Source of the DNA: Escherichia coli | GTDB lineage: Bacteria; Pseudomonadota; Gammaproteobacteria; Enterobacterales; Enterobacteriaceae | NCBI RefSeq assembly: GCF_046105845.1 | Contig: NZ_CP151004.1 | DNA: 64,000 nt | Reading direction: 5' to 3' (one strand) | Shown: positions 23,236-23,505 of the stretch, in pieces | Position numbering within the stretch: the stretch's first letter is position 1 | How the letters are laid out: the number at the start of each line of letters is the position of its first letter | The notes under the pieces: generated by a model | What the model saw: the letters and a program-made list of their open reading frames with translations, nothing else | What the model was told of the DNA's origin: nothing | Databases searched by the model: none | Program-made: the position numbers and the translations under genes

Positions 23236-23505
23236 CTTCGCGCCTTCCGTATTCTGATAGCTACACCGTTAACATAGCGTTACCTCGCCTGTTCGTCGAT
23301 AGCCAATCTTTTGACATATTAAGAAACAAACCCGACGCCAAAAGACGCAAATTGTTTATATCATCACGCTTCAGCTAATGTATATTTATGCAATCAGACA
23401 GCATATTGCATAAATAATCAGATCTGTATCAAAGTTTTAACTTTAAGGAAACACAAGCACGCCGCGCAACTATTACGTGACGTTGCAGTCAATTGTGGAA
23501 TTATT

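Follow-up and report, generated by a model that had tools for sequence, protein, structure and literature searches.

We asked what the inverted repeat lying between the divergent genes ybgI and dtpD of Escherichia coli represents, and which regulator, if any, would recognise it. In the window, that is, the whole stretch of 64,000 nucleotides that was analysed, the repeat belongs to a 270-nt intergenic region (23236-23505) bounded by the coding sequence of dtpD, encoding a dipeptide permease (23506-24987, + strand), and by that of ybgI, the first gene of the ybgI-pxpBCA-nei cluster (22492-23235, − strand); both were taken from the open reading frames and the RefSeq annotation. The first-pass annotation had described two 8-bp arms, TATGCAAT at 23387-23394 and ATTGCATA at 23405-23412, with 10 nt between them. 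This repeat is indeed present and its arms are perfect, but their true extent is 12 nt each: complementarity holds without a mismatch over TATTTATGCAAT (23383-23394) and ATTGCATAAATA (23405-23416), on either side of the 10-nt spacer, and 94 nt separate the end of the right arm from the ATG of dtpD. The length of the arms is decisive for the significance of the repeat. In 5000 dinucleotide-preserving shuffles of the intergenic region, repeats with 8-nt arms and a spacer of at most 20 nt appeared in 9.5% of cases, so that the repeat as first described is not significant, and repeats with 12-nt arms appeared in 0.06% (P 0.0006). Perfect repeats with 12-nt arms exist at three loci only in the 64-kb window, the dtpD locus included. 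The other two repeats with arms of at least 12 nt are CTTTAAAAACTG, with a 15-nt spacer (7568-7606), and CTGGCCTGCAAAA, with a 9-nt spacer (61215-61251). The repeat region is found in 5420 of 5426 complete E. coli genomes, and the intergenic region of the window differs from that of MG1655 at two bases, both outside the repeat.

We then asked where the repeat lies with respect to the transcription starts. Coordinates m of U00096.2 were converted into window positions w with the relation m = 765,285 − w, which was checked with the ybgI start at 742,021: the flanking sequence published for this start stops at 23264 of the window. The published dtpD start is an A at 23393 (+ strand; 741892(−) in U00096.2, 3 reads, supplementary file 2 of PMC3415461), which gives a 5′ UTR of 113 nt. 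The −10 hexamer TATATT (23381-23386, + strand) lies 7 nt upstream of this start, after a TG at 23379-23380, and is the same in every orthologue. No conserved −35 element for dtpD was found in the orthologue comparison, and a sigma-70 consensus scan found no promoter at the scan threshold. The repeat had been placed about 100 bp upstream of dtpD; with the start at 23393 (PMC3415461), it spans −10 to +24 and lies on the promoter, not upstream of it, taking in the −10 hexamer, the start and some 24 of the first transcribed bases.

Transcription in the opposite direction has two origins. The main ybgI start lies at 23264 (− strand; 742021(+) in U00096.2, score 133, Cappable-seq, PMC4782308; also in PMC3415461), with a −10 element TATGTT at 23271-23276 and a conserved CGTCGATAG block farther upstream. 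A distal start in the ybgI direction lies at 23433 (− strand; 741852(+) in U00096.2, score 15, Cappable-seq, supplement of PMC4782308), for which TAAAGT at 23440-23445, read from the sequence by eye, resembles a −10 element. Sigma-70 ChIP places two polymerase events in the region, at 742,036 and 741,859 (PMC3798280). The transcript from the distal start is antisense across the whole repeat and the dtpD promoter; this weak promoter, which is restricted to one clade in the intergenic alignment, thus sends transcription across the repeat towards the dtpD promoter, with which it is convergent. The two starts, 23393 (+) and 23433 (−), face each other with a 41-nt overlap, the ARG-like boxes discussed below lying between them, and the two promoters could interfere with each other. 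Two further features of the ybgI side deserve mention. Within the distal leader, a terminator-like hairpin followed by a T-rich tract is seen at 23335-23348 (− strand), and the transcript from 23433 might partly end there as an RNA of about 100 nt carrying the repeat hairpin. The conserved −10 and −35 blocks of the main ybgI promoter coincide in part with a 21-nt direct repeat, GATAGC..ACATA (23256-23318, 71% identity, spacing 42).

If the repeat is functional, is it conserved as such? An orthologue scan with one genome per species and a DtpD identity of at least 82% retrieved dtpD from Escherichia, Salmonella (arizonae, diarizonae), Citrobacter, Pseudocitrobacter, Klebsiella, Raoultella, Kluyvera, Superficieibacter, Pluralibacter, Yokenella, Intestinirhabdus, Silvania and other Enterobacteriaceae, nearly always adjoining a divergent ybgI. 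One of the records, titled 'Chryseobacterium sp. 18061', is probably a mislabelled or contaminated assembly: its ybgI-dtpD locus is enterobacterial (84% DtpD identity) and closely resembles the one of 'Citrobacter sp. 18056', a genome of the same study. The footprint was established on 44 distinct orthologous sequences from about 13 genera, aligned without gaps. Most of the intergenic region has diverged past recognition, leaving as islands the −10 and −35 blocks of ybgI and a block at 23376-23407. The orthologous regions are therefore far from lacking conservation at this site, and the expectation that footprinting across Enterobacteriaceae would reveal a conserved element was borne out, except that the conserved unit differs from the palindrome that had been proposed. 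Indeed, all columns of TGTATATTTATGCA (23379-23392), which comprises the left arm and 4 nt upstream of it, are invariant or at least 90% conserved; within the left arm only the last two bases vary, the other columns being invariant or nearly so. A second block, GCATA at 23401-23405, is invariant or at least 90% conserved, as is, at the latter level, the T at 23406. Between the two blocks, eight bases vary in sequence, except for a near-invariant A at 23398, and their number is constant. Conservation of the right arm is limited to Escherichia, Citrobacter and a few further lineages. Of the 44 sequences, 26 have lost its G and 17 its C, and the right arm of Salmonella is more diverged than what follows downstream of the repeat.

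This asymmetry bears directly on the initial proposal that one dimeric regulator recognises TATGCAAT-N10-ATTGCATA as a unit. The perfection of the arms, a repeat rarer than expected by chance and its maintenance within Escherichia all agree with such a model. However, a dimer site of this kind should be conserved in both arms, and the losses in the right arm just described, together with a conservation that extends 4 nt to the left of the repeat, make the model very unlikely. The same alignment speaks to another possibility, namely that the repeat works at the RNA level, as a hairpin of the long distal ybgI leader that affects the stability, termination or translation of ybgI-pxp-nei. The distal start at 23433 does allow the whole repeat to be transcribed, and the hairpin (−10.4 kcal/mol, z-score −4.1) is kept in the minimum-energy fold of the leader. 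Nevertheless, the 44 sequences contain no double-sided compensatory change in the 12-bp helix, which pairs in 72% of the cells, exactly the mean of the shuffled control; Rfam returned no family match, only sub-threshold noise; and the distal promoter is itself clade-specific. On the other side, the dtpD mRNA holds only 2 nt of the left arm and cannot form the hairpin at all. We thus give a function of the repeat as RNA an equally small probability.

The ARG box, the binding site of the arginine repressor ArgR, is an 18-bp imperfect palindrome with the consensus WNTGAATWWWWATTCANW, and two boxes usually lie 3 bp apart (Maas 1994, Charlier 1992). We compared the repeat with this consensus because a literature string search had placed ATTGCATAAATA in the characterised ArgR operator of Chlamydia pneumoniae, where the same string is part of an ARG box (PMC2175317); organism and gene are unrelated, and the likeness illustrates only the TGCAT-AAAT variant of the box. 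Each arm of the repeat proved to be the inner half of an 18-bp ARG-box-like palindrome of its own. The left arm corresponds to positions 7-18 of a first box, box 1 (AATGTATATTTATGCAAT, core TGTAT-ATTT-ATGCA, 23377-23394), which extends from −16 to +2 of the dtpD promoter, and the right arm to positions 1-12 of another, box R (ATTGCATAAATAATCAGA, 23405-23422), which lies 10 bp after box 1; each box agrees with the consensus at 14 of 16 positions. As ARG boxes are palindromic, two neighbouring boxes automatically form a long inverted repeat, and it is this repeat that the first-pass annotation had noticed. In addition, at the usual 3-bp gap after box 1 there is a box 2 (ACAGCATATTGCATAAAT, 23398-23415), whose match in E. 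coli is good in the proximal half, ACAGCATAT, only.

These matches were scored with a symmetrised matrix built from 22 boxes in eleven ArgR-controlled promoter regions of MG1655, in which a consensus scan had recovered the textbook pairs of carAB, argF, argI, argECBH, argA, argD, argG, argR (with a gap of 2 bp), artJ, artP and hisJ. With 19.1 bits, box 1 is the best match in the 64-kb window; box R comes second with 18.2 bits, and the next best match has 13.9. For comparison, the known operators reach 11.6-22 bits with the better of their boxes in leave-one-out tests. A matrix restricted to 8 biosynthetic operators gave 19.5 bits for box 1 and 16.8 for box R. Elsewhere such scores are rare: no box exceeded 17.2 bits in 583 kb of genuine enterobacterial DNA, the dtpD promoter excluded, a box of at least 19.1 bits occurred only once in 2 Mb of Markov-simulated sequence, and 270-nt samples with the composition of this region contain a box of 18 bits or more with a probability of 0.002. 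The 26 regions upstream of DtpC paralogues and from Hafnia and Edwardsiella reached at most 7.5 bits. Within the window, the only additional copy of TGTATATTTATGCA is the second arm of the repeat itself.

The footprint can be read in the same frame. Box 1 scores 8-19.6 bits in every orthologue, and the near-invariant columns of the alignment are its positions 3-16, positions 1, 2, 17 and 18, where the consensus has W or N, being those that vary. Box 1 thus matches the 18-bp palindrome and is conserved at the informative positions, and it includes the −10 hexamer and the start (3 reads), which places it, like a repressing ArgR operator, over the core promoter. As for box 2, its positions 4-8 show no variation in the 44 sequences and its position 9 is conserved at 90% or more; the left half of the box, ACAGCAT, is similar to the ACAGAAT found in the boxes of argA and artP. 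The E. coli version of box 2 scores −2.5 bits, and the canonical pair sums to 16.6 bits vs 21.7-38.2 in known operators. In Klebsiella, Raoultella and Pluralibacter-like genera, box 2 reaches 6-9.7 bits at the 3-bp gap, and most pairs then sum to 20-26 bits, with as much as 25.9 in K. pneumoniae, which overlaps the 21.7-38.2 bits of known operators. In Kluyvera, a usable second box is lacking. According to these comparisons, the repeat is probably an arginine-dependent ArgR operator placed over the dtpD core promoter. A transcription-factor site is still the best reading of this element, as had been suggested from the outset, though not in the form of a single 8-N10-8 palindrome bound by a dimer.

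The conservation of box 1 is partly explained by the −10 hexamer alone. One could go further and suppose that no regulator is involved, the footprint reflecting a core promoter (TG, −10 hexamer, discriminator and start) followed, at +10 to +15, by a −10-like CATATT used for a secondary start or for sigma-dependent pausing, with the repeat as a by-product of AT-rich sequence. Several observations are in line with this idea: the invariant TATATT lies 7 nt before the mapped start, the remaining conserved blocks of the intergenic region are the −10 and −35 elements of ybgI, RegulonDB lists a further start at 741874, that is, window position 23411, and the right arm decays freely. What this explanation does not accommodate is the extent of the conservation, as eight invariant bases past the hexamer (TTTATGCA) and a GCATAT at fixed distance exceed what is usual for a promoter amid diverged flanks. 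Nor does it account for the low chance probabilities of the repeat (P 0.0006) and of a box of at least 18 bits (0.002). We consider it unlikely.

A regulator other than ArgR could also be responsible, for example Lrp, acting on an inner repeat TATGC-N9-GCATA centred at +4 of dtpD, in which case the resemblance to ARG boxes would be coincidental. We know of no E. coli regulator motif that fits TATGC-N9-GCATA. The inner repeat pairs in 99.5% of the cells across the 44 sequences, with a spacer variable in sequence and constant in length. CAGCATATT fits the first 9 positions of the Lrp SELEX consensus, YAGHAWATTWTDCTR, and a preprint assigns DtpD to an Lrp or SoxS expression module, not to an ArgR one. 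Against this, the Lrp match amounts to 11 of 15 positions and is degraded in Kluyvera, and TATGC-N9-GCATA is absent from the rest of the window, from the regions upstream of DtpC paralogues and from the Hafnia and Edwardsiella loci. In addition, such a regulator would leave unexplained why the near-invariant columns are precisely positions 3-16 of an ARG box, and the ARG matrix scores are far above all controls. We therefore think this alternative rather unlikely.

Two further regulators have been connected with dtpD in the literature. The LexA (SOS) repressor was suggested by a BPROM-predicted LexA site in a dtpD clone, together with induction of this clone by mitomycin C (PMC7606416). By eye, ATGTATATTTATGCAA fits 12 of the 16 positions of CTGTATATATATACAG, and ybgI and nei are related to DNA damage. 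However, the essential CTG and CAG triplets of the LexA box are replaced here by ATG and CAA, and ATGT-N8-GCAA agrees with only 5 of the 8 positions of CTGT-N8-ACAG, too few for a member of the family; the A or G that stands in for the first position varies by genus. A LexA box at this site is extremely unlikely. The second regulator is Cra. The first-pass annotation knew of no regulator assigned to dtpD, but this view is outdated: Cra is reported to bind the dtpD promoter in a gel shift and to repress it (PMC8085971). Among the regulators that we came across, Cra alone has an experimental link with dtpD, by this gel shift and by expression during growth on non-glycolytic substrates (PMC8085971). 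A single Cra-like site, GCTGAAGCGTGATG (23362-23375, − strand), was recognised by eye against the logo GCTGAANCGNTTCA of the same study (PMC8085971), its left half alone being perfect. It is located between the −35 and −10 positions of dtpD and outside the repeat, it is specific to E. coli sensu stricto and unconserved elsewhere, and it is a candidate, judged from its sequence, for the binding observed in the gel shift (PMC8085971). Cra thus acts on the same promoter, yet its putative site leaves the conserved block unexplained. Other candidates were discarded. A GalR site predicted as '741888 dtpD' (PMC5110547) falls inside the dtpD coding sequence in the coordinates of U00096.3. The MngR/FarR motif TGTATTAWWT is neither enriched nor present at the site. 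By eye, sigma-54, CRP, FNR, IHF, NsrR, TyrR, PurR-type, DnaA-box and marbox motifs gave partial matches or matched only the unconserved right arm.

How does the proposed ArgR operator compare with known ones? Its closest counterparts are those of the arginine transporter genes artJ (AGTGAATTTATATGCAAT) and artPIQM (artP, ACAGAATAATTATGCAAT). Like box 1 of dtpD, both have one strong 18-bp box ending in ...ATGCAAT, followed 3 bp on by a weak box in which only the proximal half is good, and in the three cases the target is an uptake system. This 'one and a half box' layout is that of the artJ, artP and argR operators. The weak box is poorer in dtpD, with −2.5 bits in E. coli vs 5.6-7.9 bits in artJ, artP, argR and argD; box 2 of Klebsiella, Raoultella and Pluralibacter-like genera resembles the weak boxes of these four operators. 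In contrast with artJ and artP, dtpD has an additional strong box at a non-canonical 10-bp gap, and its operator is predicted from sequence. The operators of the biosynthetic genes argF, argI, carAB, argECBH and argG are similar to that of dtpD in that they consist of 18-bp imperfect palindromes fitting the consensus and lying over the promoter, and the single-box scores are comparable (19 bits in dtpD vs 18-22 bits). They differ from it by having two good boxes at a 3-bp gap, with pair sums of 32-38 bits, and by half-sites of the TGAAT type vs TGTAT and TGCAT in dtpD.

The following regulatory scenario can be proposed from these comparisons. When arginine is plentiful, the ArgR-arginine hexamer would bind box 1 and the adjacent half of box 2. 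Binding at this place is predicted to block RNA polymerase at −10/+1, and so to repress the DtpD permease. Box R would then be a lineage-specific extra box in Escherichia and Citrobacter. Indeed, it scores 16-18 bits in Escherichia, 13.4 in Citrobacter (8.2 in C. sedlakii), 14.1 in UBA5654 and 6-7 in Salmonella, and the TGCAT half of box R arises from 4 nucleotides (GCAT) by which the Escherichia-type sequence is longer than that of Klebsiella. From centre to centre, box 1 and box R are 28 bp apart vs 21 bp for boxes at the canonical 3-bp gap. The strong boxes of E. coli being separated by 10 bp, one hexamer cannot contact both canonically; box R may provide a further register for binding, or hinder, as a roadblock, the antisense transcript from the distal ybgI start. 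A more elaborate version can be imagined, in which the 4-nt gain in Escherichia and Citrobacter made a second full-strength box out of helical phase, and thereby a three-box operator of 46 bp between convergent promoters. With two hexamers, or with one that switches register, ArgR would repress initiation at dtpD and also roadblock the antisense ybgI-pxp-nei leader, coupling dipeptide uptake and an operon for 5-oxoprolinase and DNA repair to arginine. We regard this extended scheme, itself drawn from the arrangement of the boxes, as quite unlikely.

What would an ArgR operator mean for dtpD? If our interpretation is correct, dtpD would join artJ, artPIQM and hisJQMP among the uptake systems that are repressed by arginine via ArgR. 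DtpD is a poorly understood transporter, and its loss on top of that of the three other Dtp permeases leads to a gut-colonisation defect (PMC10936423). Control by ArgR would give it a physiological context, possibly the import of dipeptides with basic residues. The closest paralogue of DtpD is DtpC (56-61% identity), which prefers dipeptides with a C-terminal basic residue according to PMC3478282, and a link of DtpD with such substrates may be inferred by analogy. The case would also provide an example of an ArgR operator that has an unusual additional box, set at a non-canonical distance. No open full text was found that deals with ArgR together with dtpD or ybgH, apart from one unrelated software prediction, and the dtpD element would most likely be a member of the ArgR operator family that is new or, at least, has not been recorded widely. 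The inclusion of dtpD in the ArgR regulon would be a useful annotation, not a conceptual surprise.

Some additional observations were made around the dtpD start codon and its paralogues. A third ARG-like box, TATGAATAAACACGCATC, covers the start codon of dtpD (23505-23522) with 13.3 bits, and 14-15 bits in Citrobacter; its conservation may be owed only to the coding of Met-Asn-Lys. Upstream of the dtpC (yjdL) paralogues of many genera, about 80-190 nt before the start, we noticed a conserved motif, ACACCGTTAAAGTGCTGAAAG, which is repeatedly the best, yet low-scoring, ARG match in these regions; it looks like a separate regulatory element.

Finally, one observation concerns the 5′ UTR of dtpD. 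The small RNA GcvB controls many peptide and amino-acid transporters. At 23449-23456, the leader carries AAACACAA, a perfect complement of UUGUGUUU in the G/U-rich R1 region of GcvB. The surrounding sequence, AAGGAAACA, is kept in Escherichia, Salmonella and Citrobacter. GGA motifs near 23449-23456 and in the Shine-Dalgarno region of dtpD also resemble CsrA sites.
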